Below are positions 23,652 to 34,478 of a DNA stretch of 64,000 bases, in pieces. The notes under the pieces are model-generated. The model saw only the letters and a list, made by a program, of their open reading frames with translations. It was not told the origin of the DNA and did not search any database. This stretch comes from an uncultured Planctomycetota bacterium (GTDB lineage: Bacteria > Planctomycetota > Planctomycetia > Gemmatales > Gemmataceae), in the NCBI GenBank assembly GCA_963849325.1, contig CAWKHF010000007.1, positions 512,001 to 576,000 of the forward strand, in the 5' to 3' direction. Within the stretch, counting starts at the first letter, position 1. The number at the start of each line of letters is the position of its first letter. The position numbers were made by a program, and so were the translations under genes.

Positions 23652-24242
23652 ATGGCCACAGTGACAGCCGAACCTCTGAGCGCGACCGCCGTTGAGCGAG
23701 CCTTGATGACGGCGGAGGAATTTCTGCGCCTTCCTAATGACGGTAGGCCGAGGGAATTAGTGCGAGGGAGAGTAATTTACATGAACGTGCCGACGCCGCG
23801 ACATGGGCAGATATGCGGTCAAGTCTATTACCTGTTGCGGCACTTCTTGGAAGACCATTCCGTGGGGCACGTTGTCTGCAATGATTCGGGAGTGCGTACC
23901 GAACGCGGCCCAGACACCGTGAGAGGAGCGGATGTCGCCTTCTACAGTTACCAGCGCGTACCCCCCGGCCTCTTCCCTCAAGGATACTTGCCCGTCGTGC
24001 CCGAACTGGTCTTCGAGGTCCGCTCGTCGGGTGACCGTTGGGGGCGGATCTGGACCAAGGTTGGCGAGTATCTGGAAGCAGGGGTGACGGTCGTGTGCGT
24101 CCTCGATCAGATCCGGGAAAGATGTCATGTCTTTCGTCCCGATGATTCCGGTGAAATCTTCTCGGCCGAGCAGGAATTGACTCTCCCGGACGTTCTGCCT
24201 GAATTTCAGATTGTCGTGCGGCGATTCTTCGAGTATCCCTGA
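23652..24242 (+). CDS. Uma2 family endonuclease-like protein
   Basis: ELVRG, RGADVAF, PELVFEVRS, YLEAGV, DVLPEF. Confidence 0.88.
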   Translation: MATVTAEPLSATAVERALMTAEEFLRLPNDGRPRELVRGRVIYMNVPTPRHGQICGQVYYLLRHFLEDHSVGHVVCNDSGVRTERGPDTVRGADVAFYSYQRVPPGLFPQGYLPVVPELVFEVRSSGDRWGRIWTKVGEYLEAGVTVVCVLDQIRERCHVFRPDDSGEIFSAEQELTLPDVLPEFQIVVRRFFEYP

Positions 24243-24251
24243 GGAAACTTC

Positions 24252-24662
24252 ATGGCCGAATCTCACCCCGTGCGCGTCGTCCTCGCCAAGGTCGGTCTGG
24301 ACGGCCACGACCGCGGCATCAAGGTCGTCGCTCGTGCCCTGCGCGATGCCGGCATGCAGGTCATCTACGCCGGCCTGTGGCAGACGCCCGAGGCGGTTGT
24401 GCGCACCGTCGCCGACGAGGACGCTGATTGGCTCGGTCTGAGCCTCCTTAGCGGCGCTCACATGACCCTGGTGCCGCGCGTCCTGCAACTGTTACGCGAG
24501 GCGGGGCTGGAACACGTCGGCGTCCTGGTCGGTGGCATCATCCCCGAGGACGACGTGCCGAAGCTGCGCGAGATGGGCGTGGCCCACGTCTTCGGTCCCG
24601 GCACGGCGCTGCCGGAAATCGTCGCGTTTTTGCAACAGCGCAGCGGAGCGGGCCATGCTTGA
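24252..24662 (+). CDS. Acyl-CoA mutase cobalamin-binding subunit
   Basis: GLDGHDRG (DxHxxG), GLSLLSGAH, GGIIP. Confidence 0.93.
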   Translation: MAESHPVRVVLAKVGLDGHDRGIKVVARALRDAGMQVIYAGLWQTPEAVVRTVADEDADWLGLSLLSGAHMTLVPRVLQLLREAGLEHVGVLVGGIIPEDDVPKLREMGVAHVFGPGTALPEIVAFLQQRSGAGHA

Positions 24663-25590
24663 GACGCTCCTGGAACGCTTTCGCCGCCGCGACCGCCTGG
24701 CCCTGGCTCGGCTCCTCAGTCTGGCGGCGCGGGGCGAGCAGGTCGAAGACATTCTGACCGGCGTAGGAGAACCCGCGCGGCCGGCCCGCGTGGTCGCCGT
24801 CACCGGCAGCGGCGGCGTCGGCAAGAGCACCCTGATCGGCAAGATGATTGACGAAGTGCGACGCCAGGGGGCGAGCGTGGCCGTGCTCGCTTGCGATCCG
24901 CAAAGTCCGCTGAGCGGCGGCGCGCTGCTCGGCGATCGCTTCCGCATGCCGGCGCGGCCCGACGACGACGGCGTCTTCATCCGCAGTCTGGCCGCCGCCG
25001 GAGGACACGGCGCCCTGGCCGAGCACCTCGCCGTCCTCGTCCGTCTGCTGGAAGCGTTCGGCTTCGACGTGGTACTGATCGAGACCGTCGGCGCGGGGCA
25101 GGGCGATACGGTCGTGCGCGAGTTGGTCGATGTCCTCGTGCTGCTGCTCCAGCCGGAGACTGGCGACGATTTGCAGTGGGAGAAGGCCGGACTGCTGGAG
25201 GTGGCCGACGTCCTTGTCATCCACAAGGCGGACCTGCCCGGCGCCGAGCGCGTCGAGGCGCAGGTGCTGGCGACGCTCGCCCTCGGCACGGCGGCCGCCG
25301 CGCCGGTGCTGCGCATCAGCTCGCGCACCGGGAGCGGACTTGCCGAGCTGTGGCGGACGATCGCCGCGCGGCCGCTGCGCCGCGGCCGACAGAGGAGCGG
25401 CCGCGACCTGCTCCGACTCGCTCAACAGACGTTGGCCGCGCGCTTCGCCGCGGCCGAGGGCGCCGATCGACCGGAGTTACGGCAACTACTGAAACGCTGG
25501 CAGCGCGGTGACATCCCTACCGCCCAGGCCGCCTCGTCTCTTCTCGACCTGCTCCGCGAAGCCACGACTCCCGCCGAACCGCGCCGTTAA
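24655..25590 (+). CDS. meaB: MeaB/ArgK-like G-protein chaperone
   Basis: GSGGVGKS, GGALLGDRFRM, IETVGAGQ, HKAD. Confidence 0.9.
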   Translation: MLETLLERFRRRDRLALARLLSLAARGEQVEDILTGVGEPARPARVVAVTGSGGVGKSTLIGKMIDEVRRQGASVAVLACDPQSPLSGGALLGDRFRMPARPDDDGVFIRSLAAAGGHGALAEHLAVLVRLLEAFGFDVVLIETVGAGQGDTVVRELVDVLVLLLQPETGDDLQWEKAGLLEVADVLVIHKADLPGAERVEAQVLATLALGTAAAAPVLRISSRTGSGLAELWRTIAARPLRRGRQRSGRDLLRLAQQTLAARFAAAEGADRPELRQLLKRWQRGDIPTAQAASSLLDLLREATTPAEPRR

Positions 25591-26114
25591 TCGCGCGGCT
25601 TGATGACTTTCCGCGGCCGAGCGAAGACCTGCGTGTAGTAAACCTCGCCCTTGTCATTGCGGGCGATGCCCAGGCCCGTTTCCGTGACCTTGTTGCCGAG
25701 CAGGTTCTCGCGGTGAAGCTTCGATTCCATCCAACCCTTGACGATGGCCGTGAGGGGTGCTTCCGCTCCCTCGCTCATGGCGATGTTCTCGCTGACTTTG
25801 CCGTAATCGTAACCGACGGCCAGGACGCGCTGGCCCGGCGTCTTGCCGTCGAGAACGTGTTCCATCTTCCCCTGCCTGGCCATGTTTGCCGAGTGCCCGC
25901 GCGCCGCTCGGAACAAGAGCGTCTGCGGCCGCAGAGGCGGCAGCTTTTCCTTCGCCCGCTCCTGGTTGATTAACTCCAGGAGGGTCCCCTCGTCCTTGCT
26001 CATCTCGACGTGGGCGCCTTCCAGCCTGCCCTTTCCCTTGGCGTCCTCCGCGAAGGCCGTCGAGGCCAAGGCGGCGAAGATCAGGAAGCCAAACGCGGAA
26101 GCGAATCGAATCAT
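25587..26114 (-). CDS. CAP/SCP domain secreted protein
   Basis: INQER, AARGHSANM, ENIA, WMESKLHRENLL, YYTQVF. Confidence 0.9.
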   Translation of the reverse strand: MIRFASAFGFLIFAALASTAFAEDAKGKGRLEGAHVEMSKDEGTLLELINQERAKEKLPPLRPQTLLFRAARGHSANMARQGKMEHVLDGKTPGQRVLAVGYDYGKVSENIAMSEGAEAPLTAIVKGWMESKLHRENLLGNKVTETGLGIARNDKGEVYYTQVFARPRKVIKPRD

Positions 26115-26199
26115 GACAGCACCTCGCCCAAGGTCGATAGGATGGCCGCGAACCAGACCGACCTCCTGTCCCTACGATTGTCGCCCGCGGCATCCGCAT

Positions 26200-26228
26200 G
26201 GCCGTTCTGCTGCAGCGACGGGTTCGGC
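26200..26228 (-). other. Truncated attC site (R'' and L'' half only)
   Basis: Minus strand GCCGAAC-CCGTC-GCTGCAGCAGAACGGCC, 6 bp after the PIN gene stop; matches the R''/L'' arm of the reconstituted attC; no partner arm found. Confidence 0.65.
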
Positions 26229-26234
26229 AGCCTG

Positions 26235-26594
26235 TCAGAGCGCACTGGGCCGGCGGATGCGGATCGAGCCCGGCGCGATCACGCAGAAGGCTCCGGCCAA
26301 CTCGGCCGCATGGTCCCGAAACAGCTGGGACACGGCCTCCGCCTTCGCTGAGGGAGACAGCCCCGCCAACCGGGTGAGCACGACGCCGCCGTGGATGCGG
26401 CCGAGGCGGTACACTAACTCGCCAAAGTCCTTGTCCGCGGTCACGAGCAGGGCCGACCGCGCGTTGGCCTCGCCGAGCACTTGATCGTCCGTGATGCTCG
26501 GCGCCAGTTCGGCGACGTACACCGTGGCATGGCCATCGGCGCGCAAGCGCTCCACCACCTCCCGCTCAACACTCTCGTCGGCCAGTAAGTTCAT
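26235..26594 (-). CDS. DUF5615 PIN-like toxin
   Basis: LLADES, ITDDQVL, LVTADKDFGEL. Confidence 0.9.
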   Translation of the reverse strand: MNLLADESVEREVVERLRADGHATVYVAELAPSITDDQVLGEANARSALLVTADKDFGELVYRLGRIHGGVVLTRLAGLSPSAKAEAVSQLFRDHAAELAGAFCVIAPGSIRIRRPSAL

Positions 26595-26827
26595 ACCGGC
26601 TGCGGGCTCAAGGGGTAGACTGTGTCAGCCCGCAACGCCTGGGCGGCAAAGGCGAAGGCGGCCAGCACGGCCGGCCGGGTCAGCCGGGGGTGAGCAGCGA
26701 GGATCTGTTCGATAGGCTCGCCGGCAGCCACCTTTTCCAAGATCAACTCCACCGTCACACGGGTTCCGGCGACCACCGGTTTACCCATCATGACGGCGGG
26801 ATCGGAGACAATCAATGGTTCGCTCAT
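26591..26827 (-). CDS. DUF433 antitoxin
   Basis: SDPAVMMGKPVVAGTRVTVELIL; ATGA overlap with the toxin gene. Confidence 0.92.
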   Translation of the reverse strand: MSEPLIVSDPAVMMGKPVVAGTRVTVELILEKVAAGEPIEQILAAHPRLTRPAVLAAFAFAAQALRADTVYPLSPQPV

Positions 26828-26996
26828 CGGGGCACCTCCGACCGCCAGTCTACAGCAACCGACGAGCCAAGAGCAAGCGCGGGCCGCCGAACGACACAGC
26901 TCAGATGGGGATGATGCCGGGTTGCTCCCACCGACGACAAGCCGGCGGTATTATGGAGTAACCCAGTAAAAGCCACCCCATCTGGAGCAACCCGAC

Positions 26997-28010
26997 ATGT
27001 CCACCACTCTACCACTGTTCGTCGGACTGGACTACTCCCAACACGCCGTCCAACTGTGCGTCTTGGACCCCACGGGTCAGGTCTTGTGTAACCGCGCCGT
27101 GCCGGACTCCGCCGACGCCATCGATCAGGCCGTCCGGCGATTCGGTGCCGTCCGCGGCGCCGCCCTGGAAGCCTGCACCGGAGCCGCCAACCTCGCCGAA
27201 GAACTCGCCGACCGCTACGCCTGGCCCGTCCACCTCGCCCACCCCGGATTCGTCAGCCGCATGAAACAGTCGCCCGACAAAACCGACTTCTCCGACGCCC
27301 GCGTCCTGGCCGACCTCGAACGGGTCGGCTACCTACCCCGCGTCTGGATTGCACCCCAGCAGCTCCGTGAACTCCGTACCCTGGTCCGCGACCGCCAACA
27401 ACTGGCCGCCCAGCGACGCAACCTCAAGCTCCAGATCGGTGCCCTGCTACGGGAACACCGCCTACGCTGTAGCCACAACCGCTGGACGCGGGCCTGGCAC
27501 GCCTGGTTGGAGCATCAAGCTCAACTGCCCGAACAAGCACGCTGGGTCATGCAACAACGCCTGCGTCGGCTGGCCTGGATCGTCCAGGAGATCCGCACCG
27601 TCGAAGAACGTCTCGAACAAGTCACCGCTGTGGACGGCACCGTAACTTGGCTGCGGACGATCAAGGGCATTGGTCCGGTCACCGCCTGGACGTTGCGGGC
27701 CGAGATCGGTCGCTTCGACCGTTTCCGAACCGGCAAGCAGTTGGCGCGGTACTGCGGCCTGACGCCGTGCAACCGCTCCTCGGGCGTGCGTGAGGCCGAC
27801 GCCGGTTTGATCCGGGCGGCCAATCCCGAACTGCGTCGCGTGCTCATCGAGGCGGCCTGGCTGTTGGCTCGTCTGCAGCCGCGTTGGCGGCAACTGGCCG
27901 AGCGTCTGAAGGCACGGGGCAAACCGAGTACGGTGGTGATAGCGGCCGTGGCCAACCGCTTCGTGCGTTGGTTGTACCACGAAGGAGTCCGCCAACAGGC
28001 GGCGGCCTGA
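26997..28010 (+). CDS. IS110-family DEDD recombinase/transposase
   Basis: GLD, ALE, KTDFSDA (DEDD); KGIGPVTA, YCGLTPCNRSSG (catalytic Ser region). Confidence 0.95.
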   Translation: MSTTLPLFVGLDYSQHAVQLCVLDPTGQVLCNRAVPDSADAIDQAVRRFGAVRGAALEACTGAANLAEELADRYAWPVHLAHPGFVSRMKQSPDKTDFSDARVLADLERVGYLPRVWIAPQQLRELRTLVRDRQQLAAQRRNLKLQIGALLREHRLRCSHNRWTRAWHAWLEHQAQLPEQARWVMQQRLRRLAWIVQEIRTVEERLEQVTAVDGTVTWLRTIKGIGPVTAWTLRAEIGRFDRFRTGKQLARYCGLTPCNRSSGVREADAGLIRAANPELRRVLIEAAWLLARLQPRWRQLAERLKARGKPSTVVIAAVANRFVRWLYHEGVRQQAAA

Positions 28011-28039
28011 CGGATAGTGACAAGGCGTTGTCATTGTCG

Positions 28040-28200
28040 GGGGAGTTCCTGAGCGGTTGCGGGTGTGCTCGGCCGGCTGCTGGGGTTTAATCCTCGCGCT
28101 CAGATGGGGCAGCCCGCAACCTTTCTTCGCATCCCATTTGGGCAGGGTCTTGAACCCACGCTCGGATAAGAAGCATGGGAGCCCCAACAGCGTCGGCGTC
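28040..28200 (+). ncRNA. Predicted bridge/seekRNA of element 1 (boundaries approximate)
   Basis: Stem GGTTGCGGG/CCCGCAACC enclosing GCCGGCTGCT (reverse complement of right target) and GCTCAG (left target); next loop has donor-like CATCCCAT and AGAAG. Confidence 0.75.
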
Positions 28201-28518
28201 CTGCCGAAGATTTCGCCGCCTCCGTGCGGCGACCAGGGGCGCTCATTGCCGCCCCCTGGACCCCCGGCTAGCCTCTCTCTGTTCCGGGAGGAAGAGAGGA
28301 GACTAACGCCGAGAAAAGGTGATTTTGCTCTTGACGAGTGGCCTGGCATCATAGAAGCAGCCGGCTCACGCGGGAGGAGGCGTGATGTCGCGCGAAACCG
28401 TTAGTCGCGTGGCCGGTCTGCCGCAGCGACTGGATACTCATGAAGGCTCTTGAAGCACACTTGAAGGAGACAGCACTCAGCCGCTGTCTCCTTCACCTGC
28501 TAACAACGAGAGGTCTTC

Positions 28519-29568
28519 ATGCGCTACTTCCAACCTACACCTGACACTCGATTCTATGCCGGTGTCGATCTCCACGCCAGATCCCTCTTTCTTGTTGTCC
28601 TCGACCACACCGGACAGATTCGCTACGCACGCAATCTCCCCGCCGCACCCCAGCCCTTCCGCAAAGCCATCACACCTTTCCGCGATGGACTCGTCGTCGG
28701 CTGCGAGTGCATGCACTGCTGGTACTGGCTGGCCGACGCCTGCCGCGACGACAACATCCCCTTCCGGCTCGGACACGCCTGGGCAATGAAAGCCGTCCAC
28801 GGCAGCAAGACCAAATGCGACCGTAAAGACGCCGAGGCCATCGCCCACCTGCTCAAGGGCGGCAACTTCCCGCTCGCCTATGCCTACCCCAAAGAACGAC
28901 GTGGACTCCGCGACCTGCTCCGCGCACGCCTCCGCCTGGTCCGCCAACGCGCCGAACTCTACGGACACGTCCACACCGCACGACGACAGCTCAACTTGCC
29001 GCCCATCTCCAACGATGTCAAATACAAGTCCAAGCGTGCCAGCGTCCTGGCCGACATCGACGACGACTGCGTCCGTCGCCGCGTCGAGGCCGACCTGTCG
29101 CTGCTGGAGCCGCTCGATACCACCATCCGACGACTGGAGAAGGACATCGAGGTCGCCGCACGACAGCACTATGCCACCGAGATGGCCGTGCTGCAATCGA
29201 CACCCGGCGTCGGCCTCGTCATCGCCCTGACCATCCTTTTGGAGATCGACACCCTCGAACGCTTCGACACCCGCCAACAGTTCTGCTCCTATGCCCGGCT
29301 ATGCGGCGCCCGCCAGGAGTCGGCCGGCAAGAAGGTGGGCACGGGCAACGCCAAGCAGGGCAACGCCTGGCTGAAGTGGGCCTTCTCCGAGGCGGCCGTA
29401 CTCAGCGCCCAGAAGAACGAACGCATCGGCCAGTACCTGGACAAGCTGTCGGGCCGTCTGGGCCAAGCCAAAGCCTTGTCGGCATTGGCCCACAAGCTGG
29501 GACGAGCCTTCTACCACATGCTCCACAAAAAGGAGGTCTTTCAGATCGACCAATTCCTGAGACACTGA
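28519..29568 (+). CDS. IS110-family DEDD recombinase/transposase
   Basis: GVDLH, GCE, KCDRKDA; PGVG, YARLCGARQESAGK. Confidence 0.95.
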   Translation: MRYFQPTPDTRFYAGVDLHARSLFLVVLDHTGQIRYARNLPAAPQPFRKAITPFRDGLVVGCECMHCWYWLADACRDDNIPFRLGHAWAMKAVHGSKTKCDRKDAEAIAHLLKGGNFPLAYAYPKERRGLRDLLRARLRLVRQRAELYGHVHTARRQLNLPPISNDVKYKSKRASVLADIDDDCVRRRVEADLSLLEPLDTTIRRLEKDIEVAARQHYATEMAVLQSTPGVGLVIALTILLEIDTLERFDTRQQFCSYARLCGARQESAGKKVGTGNAKQGNAWLKWAFSEAAVLSAQKNERIGQYLDKLSGRLGQAKALSALAHKLGRAFYHMLHKKEVFQIDQFLRH

Positions 29569-29575
29569 GAAGCCA

Positions 29576-30090
29576 GGGCGCGGCCGGCGAGCCGAAGCCG
29601 AACGGGAGCCGCTACGGGCTAACCCTTACGACGACCCCCACCATCCAGGGAGCATCGACTCCGCAGTGGGGGTCCGGGACCGCCCAGGCATCCAGCCGCT
29701 TTGATGGGACGCCGGCCGCGTCCGTATTATTTCGACCGCGGTGGTCGCAAAAACAGGCCGCGATCCGCCGGTGGGTCGGGGGACCAACGGGATCAGCGTA
29801 ACGCTGTCCCAAGGAATCGGGCTTGGCTTTGAGCCATCCCACGTCCTCCCGACCCCCGCCAGACCGCGACCCGTGATCGCAAGGAGCCATTCGCCCGGAC
29901 GATCCGCCCCAGTCGCCAGCCTGGCCGAACGGGACGCTCCTTTGGGGGAGTGAGCCAGTCGCTTTTTGAATGGCGGCGAAGCTGGGAACGTATGAATATC
30001 GGGACCGGCCAGGGCAGGTTCCCTGGCACAGCCGCCTGGTCCTTCGGGTCTGGGCCGCCGGAGTCCGCATGAGTGTTGGGTGCGGTTCGC
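29576..30090 (+). ncRNA. Predicted long, two-module bridge/seekRNA region of element 2 (boundaries approximate)
   Basis: Two stem-enclosed modules, each with AGCC..GCCGAACGGGA ... CCAGyCGCTTT..GA(A)TGG; donor-matching ATGAATATC and ATGAGTG follow module B. Confidence 0.6.
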
Positions 30091-30169
30091 CTCGGCCGTG
30101 GGCCGAAGGTGTTCCGCGTCCGTCGCTGATATCCAAGCCGGATCGCCGAGGACGATTGCTCACTGCCGC

Positions 30170-30361
30170 TGCAACCTTGTTCGGTCATCCTTCCGGCAAG
30201 AAAAACGCCGGAGATACCCGTTCCCGTGGAAAATATTTTTACTTGACACCAAGAGCCTTATGAGTGCAACCTTGTTCGGTCATCCTTCCGGCAAGAAAAA
30301 CGCCGGAGATACCCGTTCCCGTGGAAAATATTTTTACTTGACACCAAGAGCCTTATGAGTG
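30170..30361 (+). repeat. Exact tandem duplication (period 95 bp) of the right end of element 2
   Basis: TGCAACCTTGTTCGG...TTGACACCAAGAGCCTTATGAGTG at 30170-30266 and 30265-30361. Confidence 0.95.
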
Positions 30362-30473
30362 TTCGGCGTCTGGTGTATTGTCGCTGACTCCCGCCGAACG
30401 ATAACTAAGTTAGTCGCTGGGTGACGAACAATAAATCCTCTCTCGTCCATCCCTTCCGCTTTGCTCTTGGAGC

Positions 30474-30800
30474 TTACTTACGGTAGCCCTGTCTCTTTAA
30501 CTCATCATTTATCAAGCGCCTATTCGCATCTTTACGTTCCCTTTCATTCCTATCCTCCATCCATTTTAACGTCTCTCTCCACTTTTTTTTCTCCTTCTCC
30601 GTCTTCTCCGCCTGTTCTGCTGCTTTCTCCTGCTGACGTTTTTTTGCCGCCTCCTCCCTCTCTTTACTCTCTCGCTCGATTCTCTCCTGTTCTACGGGTT
30701 GATTCAACCATATGCCGATCAAAGCTATCGGCACTATCGTTAATAAAGTAAATACGACCCCTCGACCCCATGGTGTCGGTGAATCACTCGTCTTATTCAT
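30474..30800 (-). CDS. Hypothetical AT-rich protein with one TM segment and a charged coiled coil
   Basis: 108-aa ORF, RBS-like GTAGGT, AT-richer than its neighbours. Confidence 0.55.
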   Translation of the reverse strand: MNKTSDSPTPWGRGVVFTLLTIVPIALIGIWLNQPVEQERIERESKEREEAAKKRQQEKAAEQAEKTEKEKKKWRETLKWMEDRNERERKDANRRLINDELKRQGYRK

Positions 30801-30829
30801 ACCTACTACCCCCTGCTGTCGCCGAGTTA

Positions 30830-30967
30830 CTGATCATTGCGCAAAGAAAGTTAAGTTTCTTACAGCTTGCCTTTCAGGTCGAAATCCTCAGCGATTCCCG
30901 CAGAAAGCAACGATTTCGGCCCCAAATTCACCCGGAAAAAGTTTAACATTCTTTGCGCAACGGTCAG
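30830..30967. mobile_element. MITE-like 138-bp element flanked by TA
   Basis: TA|CTGATCATTGCGCAAAGAAAGTTAA ... TTAACATTCTTTGCGCAACGGTCAG|TA. Confidence 0.65.
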
Positions 30968-31417
30968 TAAGACTAGAATGTGCTTGCGCACTTGGACCAT
31001 CCCCGGATTTCACTCCCCCGACGCTGAGGATTCAAGCGAAATCCTTTTATCCTCAATAAATGCCCTGTGCTTATCAGAGCCACAAGCCGATCGCACAACC
31101 GTCTGAGAAACATCCGGTCCATTTGAGCGTGCCATGTGGAGTAATTGCCGTTAGCGTGTCTGTGTCACCCACACCCGCCAGGTCTCTTCCTGATCGTTTC
31201 CGCCCAAATGCTGGGCCTCCTGCCGTTCCCCGTGGGTTTCCGGAACTATACGCTTGTCACCCTCGCCCCGTGAGCGCCTACCTCAGGGCAACGCTGTGGC
31301 ACAAGACGCACATGTTCCCCCACACCGTTCCAGTAGTGTGAAGGTCAGGCTGATGCCCGTCTCGATGGCGAAGCCCGTCCTGTCGCCGAAGACCACCGCC
31401 ACAGGAATGCCCTTCTT

Positions 31418-31436
31418 CGCCGAACAACTGATTAGA
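31418..31436 (-). other. Candidate attI-like simple site
   Basis: Minus strand TCTAAT-CAGTT-GTTCGGCG; same core and orientation as the attC. Confidence 0.35.
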
Positions 31437-31447
31437 TCGCGCACATC

Positions 31448-31566
31448 GCGCAATCTAGCACGGCTGCTGCGCAACCTAGCAAGGGGCTGCGCGATCTAGC
31501 AAGGGCGTGCGCGGCCTAGCACGGCTGCTGCGCGACCTAGCAAGGGGCTGCGCAGACCTAGCACGG
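31448..31566. repeat. Six degenerate 20-21-bp tandem direct repeats (CTAGCA core)
   Basis: Units such as GCGCAATCTAGCACGGCTGCT and GCGCAACCTAGCAAGGGGCT. Confidence 0.85.
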
Positions 31567-31670
31567 TTCTCCTTATCTATCCGCAATCTTGCGCAGCCGT
31601 CAAGGAAAAAACGACTCCGCTTGGGACTTGCTCCCGGGCGGATGCGTGCGTGGATTCTGGAAGTCGTTTG

Positions 31671-31704
31671 GTAGGATGGGTCGAGGGACGAGACCCATCC
31701 TACC
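31671..31704. repeat. GTAG-type REP palindrome
   Basis: GGTAGGATGGGTC ... GACCCATCCTACC. Confidence 0.7.
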
Positions 31705-31814
31705 AAACGGGCCAACTACCAGAAACCATTCGCGCACCATTCCCCGGCCCTTCCCCAGCGGGGAGTTGCACAAGATCGATGGCCGAGGACCGAGGGACGA
31801 TACAATAAGCGATC

Positions 31815-34478
31815 ATGGAGAACGCCGCCACTGAAAGGGAATTCCTCGATCCGCCTCGGACGTCGGCCTGGCTCGACCAGGCGCCGGGGCCGGTGGCCGG
31901 CTGGTTTCGCCGGCGCTTCGGTGAGCCGACCGAGATCCAGCGCGCCGCCTGGTCGCATCTGCCATCCGGGCGGCACCTCCTGCTCAGCGCCCCGACCGGC
32001 ACCGGCAAGACGCTCGCCGCTTTCCTCCCGATCCTGACGCAGCTACTCCTATGCGGAAGGGAAGACAGACCCCATTCGGCATTGTCTTGCTTGTACGTCT
32101 CGCCGCTCAAGGCACTGAGCAACGACACCTACCGGACGCTGGCGGGGCACGTCGAGGAACTGACGGCGTTATGGCCCGGCGCTCGCGTACCGCGTCTGGG
32201 GGTGCGCAGCGGCGATTCGACGGCGACGGAGCGGCGGCGATTGCGCACGCATCCGCCGGACATCCTGCTGACCACTCCCGAGAGCATCGCGGTGCTGCTC
32301 AGCCAGCCGATGGCCCGGCAACTGTTCGCCGGCCTGCGCTGGGTCGTGGTCGATGAGGTACACGCCCTGGCCGCGAGCAAACGGGGCGCGGACCTGGCCC
32401 TGAGCCTGGAACGGCTGGCGCAGTTGTGCGGCGGACGACTCCAGCGCATCGGCCTATCGGCTACTGCCACGCCGCTCGTTGAGGCCGCGCGTTGGTTGAC
32501 CGGCGAGAGCTGCGCCATTGCGCAAGCGAGAGACGGGACACCGTTGCAACTGACGATCCGCCCGCTGGAGGAGAGCGGACATTTCCTGGCCACGCTCGTC
32601 GATCAGATCGCCCCGGAAGTGCGCGGCAACCGAGCGACGCTGATCTTCACGAACACGCGGCGGCTGACGGAGCAACTGGCCTGGGCACTGCGGCGCAACC
32701 TGCCGGAGTTGCAAGAGCACATCGCCGTACACCATTCGTCGCTGGCGGCGGAGCGCCGCCGCGAAGTCGAGGAGAAGTTCAAGCAGGGGCACTTGCGGGC
32801 GGTGGTCAGCAGCACGAGCCTGGAGCTGGGCATCGACATCGGCAGCATCGACCTGGCCGTGCTGGTGCATCCGCCCGGCGACGTGATCCGTCTGCTGCAG
32901 CGCGTCGGCCGGGCCGGTCACGGGCCGGGTCGCGTCAAACGCGGCCTGGTGCTGACGGCGACCGAGGCCGAATTGCTGGAGGCCGCCGTCACCGCCGTCT
33001 CCGGCGAGGCGGGCCAGTGTGAACCGCTGCGCATCCCTGTCCACCCGCTCGACGTCCTGTGCCAGCACATTCTCGGCATGGCGGCGGTGCGGGCCTGGTC
33101 GGCGGACGAGATGTTCGATCTCGTCCGCCGCGCTGCCCCCTACCGCGATCTGTCGCGCCGCGATTTCGACGATTGTCTGGCCTATCTCGGTTGCCGGCCG
33201 ACGGCGGACGAGGCGGGTTGGTTGCCGCCGCGTTTGCAGGGTAGACCGGAGAGCTTCACCATCCTCGATCCGCGAACGGCCCGCTTGCTCCGCCGCAACC
33301 TCGGCACCATCCTCGCCGATCCCACCTACGTCGTAAATCGTGGAGGGTGGAGGGTGGAGGGTGGAGGGAAAAATGCCGCTTCTACCCTCCACCCTCCACC
33401 CTCCACCCTCCACCCGACCGACACCCTCCACCCGACCGACACCCTCCGCGTTGGCGAGGTCCAGCAGGCGTTCGCCGAGCGCTTGCGACCGGGTGATCGC
33501 TTTCTGCTCGATGGCCGCTGTCTGCAAGTCTGCTCGGTGCGTCCCGAAGAAAGTGTGCTGTACGTCGAGGAGGTGACCGGCCGGCCAGTGGTGCCCCGTT
33601 GGGGGGGCAATGGCTGGCCGCTGTCCTCGGAACTGGCTGGCCGTCTGTACCTGCTGCGCGTGCAGGCCGCGGAAGCTCTGCGCGATGGTCCGCACGCGCT
33701 GACCGAACTGCTGCGGCGCGATTTCCGACTGGATGACAAGGCCGTCGCCGTTTTGTCCGCGTTCTTCCAGCGGCAGGAATGCGTCAGTGAAATACCGGAC
33801 TCGGCCGGTTGCCTGGTCGAGATCGTCGCCCACGACGAGGGTGCCGACTACTATGTGCATACCCCCCTCAACCGTCTCGGCAATGACGCCCTGGCACGGG
33901 TGGCCGTGCATCGGCTGGCACGCGACCGGGGGCGCTCCGCCGACTCCATCGTGGCGGACCTCGGTTTCGCGCTGCTGGTTCGCGGCGAACCGCGGCCGGG
34001 CGAAGCGAGCGCGGAAATGCTGCGGGACCTGCTGGCCGCCTCGGGCTTCGAGGAAGACCTGGATGCGGCCCTGGAGGGAAGCGCCGCCGTGCGCGAACGC
34101 TTTCAATGCGTGGCGCAGACCGGACTGATGCTGCTGCGGCAGCCCCTGGGACGGAGGCGGCGCGTCGGCGGACGAGACTGGGGCGCACGCCGCCTCTTCG
34201 ACAAGGTCCAGGCGCGGGACGCGGATTTCGTGCTGCTGCGGCAGGCGCGACGCGAGGTCCGACGCGAACGGTGCGATGCCGCGGCGGCAAACTCCTACGT
34301 GCGAGACCTGGAACGACGGCCCTTGCGCTGCCGCCGGCTGGCCCAGCCGTCGCCGTTCGTCGAAGGTTGGACGCAAATCGGATCGGGGGCGGCCGCTAAC
34401 GTCGAGACACCGGCGGAGGCCCTTCTGCGTCTGCATGAGTCGCTGACGGAGGCAAGCAACGATGCGCGTCCTGAATGA
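31815..34478 (+). CDS. Lhr-family SF2 helicase
   Basis: APTGTGKT, SPLKAL, TTPES, DEVH, GLSAT, HHSSL, LELGIDIG, QRVGRAGH. Confidence 0.92.
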   Translation: MENAATEREFLDPPRTSAWLDQAPGPVAGWFRRRFGEPTEIQRAAWSHLPSGRHLLLSAPTGTGKTLAAFLPILTQLLLCGREDRPHSALSCLYVSPLKALSNDTYRTLAGHVEELTALWPGARVPRLGVRSGDSTATERRRLRTHPPDILLTTPESIAVLLSQPMARQLFAGLRWVVVDEVHALAASKRGADLALSLERLAQLCGGRLQRIGLSATATPLVEAARWLTGESCAIAQARDGTPLQLTIRPLEESGHFLATLVDQIAPEVRGNRATLIFTNTRRLTEQLAWALRRNLPELQEHIAVHHSSLAAERRREVEEKFKQGHLRAVVSSTSLELGIDIGSIDLAVLVHPPGDVIRLLQRVGRAGHGPGRVKRGLVLTATEAELLEAAVTAVSGEAGQCEPLRIPVHPLDVLCQHILGMAAVRAWSADEMFDLVRRAAPYRDLSRRDFDDCLAYLGCRPTADEAGWLPPRLQGRPESFTILDPRTARLLRRNLGTILADPTYVVNRGGWRVEGGGKNAASTLHPPPSTLHPTDTLHPTDTLRVGEVQQAFAERLRPGDRFLLDGRCLQVCSVRPEESVLYVEEVTGRPVVPRWGGNGWPLSSELAGRLYLLRVQAAEALRDGPHALTELLRRDFRLDDKAVAVLSAFFQRQECVSEIPDSAGCLVEIVAHDEGADYYVHTPLNRLGNDALARVAVHRLARDRGRSADSIVADLGFALLVRGEPRPGEASAEMLRDLLAASGFEEDLDAALEGSAAVRERFQCVAQTGLMLLRQPLGRRRRVGGRDWGARRLFDKVQARDADFVLLRQARREVRRERCDAAAANSYVRDLERRPLRCRRLAQPSPFVEGWTQIGSGAAANVETPAEALLRLHESLTEASNDARPE
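33341..33447. repeat. Palindromic heptamer element inserted in frame in the helicase
   Basis: (TGGAGGG)4 ... (CCCTCCA)4 plus an 18-bp duplication. Confidence 0.88.

Follow-up and report, generated by a model that had tools for sequence, protein, structure and literature searches.

The window, by which we mean the whole 64,000-nucleotide stretch of planctomycete DNA analysed here, contains a mobile element, called element 1 below, which by its sequence is an IS1111-type insertion sequence of the IS110 family. Its recombinase gene, tnp, is preceded by 92 nt of non-coding sequence at the left end and followed by 345 nt at the right end, where a target-binding module with two putative guide segments and a predicted second module are located (Table 1). 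The ends carry 11-bp subterminal inverted repeats with the short extensions ATGGGG and AGA. The IS1111 group is described as having subterminal inverted repeats of 7-17 bp flanked by short extensions (PMC11208160), a longer non-coding region downstream of tnp and a transposase of 330-350 aa (PMC11187229), all of which element 1 shows.

Table 1. Features of element 1 and of the repeat that it interrupts; positions are those of the window.
Feature	Position	Strand	Details
Left half of target repeat	26886-26904	+	R''-like GCCGAAC 26886-26892; left target GCTC + core AG 26899-26904
Insertion sequence (element 1), 1451 bp	26905-28355	+	4 genomic copies; single AG in the empty site
Left-end 6-nt extension ATGGGG	26905-26910	+	Precedes the left subterminal inverted repeat
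Left subterminal inverted repeat ATGATGCCGGG	26911-26921	+	Pairs with 28342-28352 at 10/11 positions
tnp, 337-aa DEDD recombinase, IS110 family	26997-28010	+	Pfam and NCBIfam
Target-binding module	28055-28121	+	P1 28055-28064 / 28112-28121; GCUC 28067-28070 / GGGC 28107-28110; hairpin P2 28082-28095
Putative top-strand guide (RTG, or T segment) GCCGGCUGCU	28072-28081	+	Complementary to core + right flank 28356-28365, 10/10 nt
Putative bottom-strand guide (LTG, or B segment), 7-nt slot CGCUCAG	28097-28103	+	Last 6 nt = left flank + core 26899-26904
Second, donor-type module (predicted)	28129-28181	+	GCAUCCCAUUU 28129-28139; hairpin GGGC...GCUC 28140-28163; GGAUAAGAAG 28164-28173
-35-like TTGACG	28331-28336	+	19 nt before the right end; would face GAAGAT (right end + core + left end) in a circle junction
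Right subterminal inverted repeat CCTGGCATCAT (28342-28352) + 3-nt extension AGA	28342-28355	+	Read from the sequence
Core AG (28356-28357) + right part of target repeat (CAGCCGGCTCACGCGG ... CGCGTGGCCGGTCTGCCGCAGCGACTGG)	28356-28435	+	nhmmer C7:540355-540435, E = 2e-18

Four copies of element 1, each 1451 bp long and 98-100% identical, were found in the genome, and all four lie at the identical point of one palindromic repeat of ~100 nt, with flanks that are alike (...AAGCTCAG on the left, AGCAGCCGGCTCACGCGG... on the right). The junctions of all four copies read ...GCTCAG/IS/AGCAGCC.... The unoccupied site, GCTCAGCAGCCGGCTCAC, is present on another contig of the same genome (C5:750902-750919) and contains AG only once. 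AG is therefore a 2-nt core, of which the target has one copy and the inserted element one at each border, so that insertion adds one copy of the core. Members of the IS110 family characteristically insert at specific sites, where a 2-nt core that is single before insertion flanks the element on either side, and both the anatomy of element 1 and its site specificity are established by these comparisons. The target sequence can be written GCTCAGCAGCCGGC, and at two of the copies the ten bases to the right of the element (AGCTGCCGGC and AGCAACCGGC) show one mismatch with the 10-nt guide. The differences between the four copies amount to 9, 10 and 25 element positions outside the RNA core, with no difference inside it (28052-28181).

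Both IS110-family transposase domains were detected in the tnp product (PF01548, E = 5e-20; PF02371, E = 9e-25), which scored 204 bits against the NCBIfam model NF033542 ('IS110 family RNA-guided transposase', cut-off 140). When the protein was aligned with ten relatives (11 sequences in all) D12, E58, D100 and S261-S262-G263 were invariant and D97 was nearly so. The acidic residues align with FIGID and KTDxxDAR of ISCro4, as in the N-terminal RuvC-like DEDD domain of the IS110 family, and the motif GLTPCNRSSG contains the SG with the catalytic serine of the C-terminal Tnp domain. The solved relatives IS621 and ISCro4 matched at E of about 1e-16, with the PDB matches covering the C-terminal half only. 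No HUH/Y1 transposase domain was found in tnp by Pfam search. When the protein was searched against another 400 genomes of the phylum (E up to 1e-60), no genome gave a match, at a threshold that was perhaps too strict. The protein had previously been described as a compact recombinase; since 337 aa lies within the usual size of IS1111 transposases (330-350 aa, PMC11187229), this description adds nothing.

The landing site of element 1 is an imperfect palindrome of ~100 nt, GCCGAAC-N5-AGCTCAG^CAGCCGGCTCACGCGG...CGCGTGGCCGGTCTGCTGCAGCGaCTgGTTCGGC. A profile made from eight copies of the repeat gave 38 nhmmer matches in the genome, mostly single, with five pairs located 640-3900 bp apart. Uninterrupted repeats fold to a hairpin of ~100 nt in which an outer stem of 7 bp is separated by an internal loop from a long stem that is interrupted by single bulges and ends in a variable tip (fold z-scores -4.2 and -5.9 for the site on contig C8, -2.0 and -1.4 for that on C5). 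This is the general hairpin shape of attC sites, which fold to imperfect hairpins with R and L boxes, an unpaired spacer, extrahelical bases and a variable terminal structure (Cury et al. 2016, PMC4889954). The outer boxes of the repeat family read GCCGAAC ... GTTCGGC. The inverse core sites R''/R' at both ends of attC sites have the consensus RYYYAAC / GTTRRRY; AAC and GTT are present in the repeats, and the fourth base G (with its partner C) departs from this consensus. A search of the 85%-complete genome for integron integrase with TIGR02249 gave 15 matches, none of them over the cut-off (best piece 85 bits vs 265). CALINs are defined by two or more attC sites within 4 kb that bound short cassettes (PMC4889954), and in the window a weak second copy of the repeat (26148-26228) and the interrupted repeat flank a toxin-antitoxin-like gene pair. 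Judged by sequence and predicted fold, 'attC-like repeat' is as far as the evidence reaches, and the label attC is unproven.

The toxin-antitoxin-like pair between these two repeats consists of DUF433 and DUF5615/PIN-like genes on the minus strand (26235-26827) and looks like a cassette, with a CAP-domain gene (25587-26114) beyond it. A second and far more abundant family of palindromic repeats (GGCGAACGGCCGGCGTaAGCCGGCTGGT ... ACCAGCCGGCTtACGCCGGCCGTTCGCC) is spread over all contigs, for example at C7:524145 (about 12145 in the window), and the guides of several element 1 relatives would fit repeats of this type (right flanks AGCGTAAGCGA and the like).

An earlier note on this DNA had described a target-binding loop after tnp that matches both sides of the insertion site, and every one of its coordinates was confirmed when 26700-28600 was read. 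GGTTGCGGG (28055-28063) pairs perfectly with CCCGCAACC (28113-28121), and the closing stem is extended to 10 bp by U28064-G28112. The stem encloses GCCGGCTGCT (28072-28081), the exact reverse complement of AGCAGCCGGC (28356-28365) directly after the element, and GCTCAG (28098-28103), which is identical to the six bases before the element (26899-26904). Between the two segments lies a small hairpin in which GGGG (28082-28085) pairs with CCTC (28092-28095). The AG core, which is single in the empty site, is included in both segments, and the identity on the left extends to 12 nt (GCTCAGATGGGG, 28098-28109 = 26899-26910). The 10-mer occurs four times in the window, both strands counted, compared with 0.44 expected occurrences and with 0/100 shuffles that reached four, and the 12-mer occurs twice compared with 0.01 expected. 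By arithmetic from the window counts, the chance expectation on one strand of the 345-nt non-coding region is ~1e-3 for the 10-mer and ~3e-5 for the 12-mer. Given that the window counts are far above expectation, the match inside this region is not due to chance.

The main test was whether the two segments change together with the flanks when different elements of the family are compared. A scan of species genomes gave 12 relatives with 47-82% protein identity, mostly from metagenome-assembled Planctomycetota, and the best 80 of 519 relatives from a metagenome scan with alignment (55-92% identity) were added, which brought the relatives to 92. Among the 93 sequences examined, 81 could be parsed and yielded 67 non-redundant guide pairs, in which 55 different 10-nt guides occur; the twelve unparsed sequences (L017, L019, L048, L055, L072, L078, L091, L099, L101, L103, L109 and L112) enter none of the counts. 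The same scaffold follows the stop codon in nearly all relatives. Its first stem half is variable and leads to invariant GCUCG and the 10-nt slot; GGGC-hairpin-GCUC and a single G separate this slot from the 7-nt slot, and AUGGGGC comes before the second stem half. The entropy is 1.4-1.9 bits per column in the 10-nt slot and 1.3-1.9 bits in the two slots together, which is near maximal, and these columns lie between columns of zero entropy.

Read from the core on, the element's own right flank was matched by the reverse-complemented 10-nt slot over at least 7 nt in 50/55 non-redundant loci (mean 8.3), compared with 39/2944 mismatched pairs (mean 2.85). The observed mean was reached by 0/2000 permutations, a figure that overstates the significance because the relatives are kin and not independent. 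Three family registers were allowed in this comparison, for own and control pairs alike; under strict in-register scoring 42/55 loci matched, and most of the failing loci use a register with one skipped base. The right-flank match was absent in 5/55 loci (L015, L083, L085, L095 and L105). The 7-nt slot shared a run of at least 5 nt with the end of its own left flank in 41/63 loci vs 107/3866 mismatched pairs, with a mean run of 4.9 nt vs 2.3. In one locus, L012, the core is GG instead of AG, and this change is seen again in both slots, top-strand and bottom-strand, and in the second module. The top-strand matches, the own-flank runs on the bottom strand and the high slot entropy are what is expected of seekRNA or bridge-RNA guides, and covariation between guides and flanks is established by these counts. 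With 55 different guides, the pattern in these sequences is hard to explain otherwise.

The structure of the putative RNA was examined in the same relatives. RNAalifold was applied to an alignment of 66 of the 71 distinct RNA stretches, from which five were excluded: L010 and L056 because they exceed 190 nt, L018 for a long insert, L054 as a near-duplicate and L076 because it reaches the end of its contig. The closing stem P1 was predicted with compensatory changes in up to 31 sequences, together with two invariant GCUC/GGGC helices, the small hairpin and the second hairpin module, and 13 of the 24 predicted pairs showed compensatory changes, which establishes covariation of the stems. A covariance model (R1) built from the alignment scored 106.8 bits at each of the four copies of element 1 and found no other place in their genome. 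The fold energy of the 161-nt stretch as a single sequence was ordinary (z = -0.99; 36/200 shuffles folded at least equally well), that of the whole 347 nt gave z = -2.4, and Rfam models (E up to 1, 24000-34000) gave no match in element 1. Covariation across homologues, which had been proposed as a check of the target loop, was obtained in two forms, as guides that follow flanks and as closing stems that covary, and it supports a target loop whose two segments read the flanks of the insertion site.

The two segments previously read in a further loop, CATCCCAT (28130-28137) and AGAAG (28169-28173), were located in the second module. The build of this module copies that of the target module, with GCUCG, a guide, a GGGC hairpin GCUC, G and a guide in the same order. 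Its 3' arm, GGAUAAGAAG, resembles the right end followed by the core (CATAGA+AG) with one extra A, so that a 1-nt bulge is needed, and its 5' arm, GCAUCCCAUUU, is complementary to the core followed by the left end (AG+ATGGGGATG) given one DNA-base bulge and one G-U pair. ATAGAAG is present in 57/66 aligned relatives, and the single locus with a GG core has ATAGAGG. Discontiguous donor pairing has been described for IS621 (PMC11208160), and donor loops have been predicted for IS1111 elements (PMC11208160, Fig. 6d). The second module is probably a donor loop.

A different role for the second module would be that of a protein-binding scaffold (28129-28181), with the RNA guiding the choice of target only, as a short seekRNA, and with the ends of the element recognised through the subterminal inverted repeats. 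This alternative concerns one step of the best explanation and we consider it rather unlikely. It would fit the near-invariant columns of the module, which have 0-0.9 bits of entropy and leave almost no covariation to reveal pairing, and also the left-end variants, which are mirrored in the 5' arm in few loci (L080 and L118 follow; L013, L079, L082 and L110 do not). Moreover, the predominant seekRNAs of ISEc11, ISPa11 and ISKpn4 are 82-96 nt long and are described in PMC11187229 with target matches only. The donor-loop covariation is thin because the element ends hardly vary among the relatives. Against a scaffold role speak the 3' arm, which repeats right end and core in most relatives and follows the core in the GG locus, the build that this module shares with the target module, the donor loops predicted for IS1111 elements and the donor pairing known for IS621 (PMC11208160).

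More general alternatives concern the guides themselves. Complementarity, covariation and stems would look identical if a DNA strand acted as the guide. In IS200/IS605 elements, guide sequences in single-stranded DNA pair with the target, and the right-side single strand of element 1 might pair with its target in the same way. This is very improbable given that tnp lacks the HUH/Y1 domain, that G-U pairs are kept in the invariant GCUC/GGGC helices (U-G in 65/66 sequences), as suits an RNA, and that RNA guidance has been established biochemically and structurally for the tnp family (PMC11187229, PMC11208158). Still less credible, to the point of being nearly negligible, is the idea that the guide matches have no function and reflect chance or a scrap of target carried by element 1. 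Related palindromic repeats with CAGCCGGC abound in this G+C-rich genome, and the 10-mer is found at two further places in the window, but the expectation in the non-coding region is far below one match and the slots occupy fixed positions of a conserved, covarying scaffold and change with the flanks, with 55 different guides, in all but five of the 55 loci. The comparison of guides with own and mismatched flanks refutes this last idea for practical purposes.

AUGGGG is common to the scaffold and to the left end of element 1 itself. The extra ATGGGG of the 12-nt identity was considered as a guide for the left end and rejected: it is a family-wide motif of the scaffold without covariation, and according to RNAalifold the GGGC within this hexamer region pairs with the invariant GCUC. 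With the arms continued into the left-end hexamer, the RNA in the window has the same 12 nt as the integrated left junction and comes close to repeating the circle junction. The two loops of the RNA in this clade might be paralogous copies of one guide module, in which the continuation of the bottom-strand arm into the left-end hexamer (AUGGGG; AAUGGG in the second module), if it is more than scaffold, would be a long bottom-strand counterpart of the 2-nt handshake guides of IS621 and could balance excision against insertion. We regard this as improbable, given that variant left ends and variant RNA hexamers never mirrored each other (0/14 and 0/10).

In our interpretation the region after tnp very likely encodes a structured guide RNA that directs the recombinase. 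The 337-aa DEDD/Ser recombinase would be directed by RNA from the 345-nt region (core about 28052-28181), in which 28072-28081 would serve as the top-strand (right) guide and 28098-28103 as the bottom-strand (left) guide, overlapping at AG, and both guides together would specify GCUC-AG-CAGCCGGC within the ~100-nt palindromic repeat. The second module probably holds the ends of the element (right end + core and core + left end), so that circle junction and target would be brought together and exchanged at the AG core. The action of the guide as RNA, its binding by the recombinase and exchange via a circle are inferred from homology with ISEc11, ISKpn4, ISPa11 and IS621. Element 1 would be active, or recently active, as part of this explanation, which we hold as a whole to be highly probable.

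The RNA would probably be cut from the tnp transcript, or from read-through, and boosted by a promoter formed at the circle junction. The sequence TTGAC is found at exactly the same 19-nt distance in 60/66 non-redundant right ends, from which a promoter across the circle junction can be inferred; the idea of a junction promoter is known for the IS110 family (PMC13626964). When linear element 1 was scanned for promoters and terminators, none of either was found, and there was no complete sigma-70 promoter. Soil and rhizosphere metatranscriptome runs contained only 0.04-0.05 of the sampled words. Their contigs are mostly those of relatives with <95% identity, and gaps in the coverage carry no information. 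One rhizosphere contig of 194 nt covers 28059-28180 with one mismatch and is then unlike the window; given this divergence beyond 28180 it comes from a close relative. It is a weak hint of transcription of the RNA of a near-identical relative, since the contigs show neither ends nor strand.

The hairpin-rich part at 28200-28290 had a summed depth of 144 in one soil metatranscriptome, in contigs that were unlike the window on both sides. In its own genome this part is found only in the four IS copies, and it is lacking in most relatives outside the subfamily to which the element in the window belongs.

A second, different IS110-family element (28434-30361; tnp 28519-29568, 349 aa) lies ~78 bp beyond element 1, close to the other end of the palindromic repeat that both elements occupy. 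Its junctions are GACTGG/ATACTCATGAAGG and TTATGAGTG/TTCGGCG, it has 16-bp subterminal inverted repeats, and its non-coding region contains GCCGAAC-type strings complementary to the GTTCGGC end of the repeat. The R1 search gave no match in this element. A 99% identical copy is located at C12:879951-881804, likewise in such a repeat, and is without the 95-bp tandem duplication seen at the right end of the copy in the window (about 30170-30361; 97-nt self-match at offset 95). In two loci, L009 and L044 (Tnp 82% and 92% identical), an element-1-type IS is followed by the rest of the repeat and by GGATACTCAT(G/C)AAGG, the left end of an element-2-type IS, which could result from repeated co-targeting or from shared descent. 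Further along, a near-perfect hairpin of 74 nt (33340-33413), made of GGTGGAG-type repeats and their complement, is located inside a long ORF (31815-34478), and the only Rfam matches over 24000-34000 were microRNA models on the hairpins 33327-33425 and 31643-31736, all below gathering scores.

The known systems close to element 1 include IS1111 elements that encode seekRNAs. In these the RNA follows tnp, the top-strand match is located 5' of the bottom-strand match and the two overlap at the core (PMC11187229), and the same order of segments with overlap at the insertion point is seen in element 1. Element 1 also resembles ISKpn4, ISPst6, ISPa25, ISEc11 and ISPa11 as described by Siddiquee et al. 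(2024, PMC11187229) in its long non-coding region downstream of tnp, its subterminal inverted repeats, its folded palindromic target and a transposase of the same size class with the GL-P----S(t)G motif. In contrast, the protein is very distant, with the best plasmid-borne relatives at most 33% identical (ISKpn4, ISPst6 and ISPa25 were compared by description). ISKpn4, ISPst6 and ISPa25 target one end of attC sites (PMC11187229), whereas element 1 uses a different, G+C-rich repeat, with the insertion point in the 5' arm of the long stem, in a genome where the integron integrase search found none.

The bridge RNA of IS621 (Durrant et al. 2024, PMC11208160; Hiraizumi et al. 2024, PMC11208158) is similar in having two guide loops with the 2-nt core in both, DEDD and Ser recombinase chemistry and discontiguous donor pairing. 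The LTG of IS621 pairs with the left bottom strand and the RTG with the right top strand, with the core in both (PMC11208160), and the strand rules of the element 1 guides fit this scheme; the arrangement after tnp follows the bridge or seekRNA logic named in the earlier note (PMC11187229, PMC11208160). Most relatives have a U after the top-strand guide, at the position of the IS621 handshake guide (PMC11208158), and this U could base-pair with the final A of the right end; the subfamily of the window has G at this position. Element 1 differs from IS621 in having its RNA at the 3' instead of the 5' side, a reversed order of arms and long inverted repeats.

IS4321 of plasmid R751, which belongs to a system targeting Tn21-type inverted repeats (cited in PMC11208160), shares with element 1 the IS1111 family call and the non-coding region after tnp, but the proteins are only 25% identical over 283 aa (71/283), in an alignment restricted to tnp residues 56-334. 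R1 found nothing in the non-coding regions of both IS4321 copies (best 4.5 bits, E = 0.75, on the wrong strand), and the RNA scaffold therefore differs from that of IS4321 at the sequence level. By these sequence comparisons the RNA scaffold of element 1 is a separate sequence family, and its logic is the published one.

Bridge RNAs have been predicted in 93% of catalogued IS1111 elements (PMC11208160), and element 1 is a well-supported new example of the mechanism described in 2024, not a new mechanism. Given that this mechanism was published in 2024, what the finding contributes is mainly a clean example from nature. One scaffold with 55 natural 10-nt guides and their flanks gives a picture of the extent to which reprogramming, shifts of register and single mismatches are tolerated by the RNA. 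The clade, found in large soil-type genomes, branches far from plasmid-borne relatives, to which it is 25-33% identical. The palindromic repeats of this genome are marked as landing pads, with two different IS110-family elements in one repeat.
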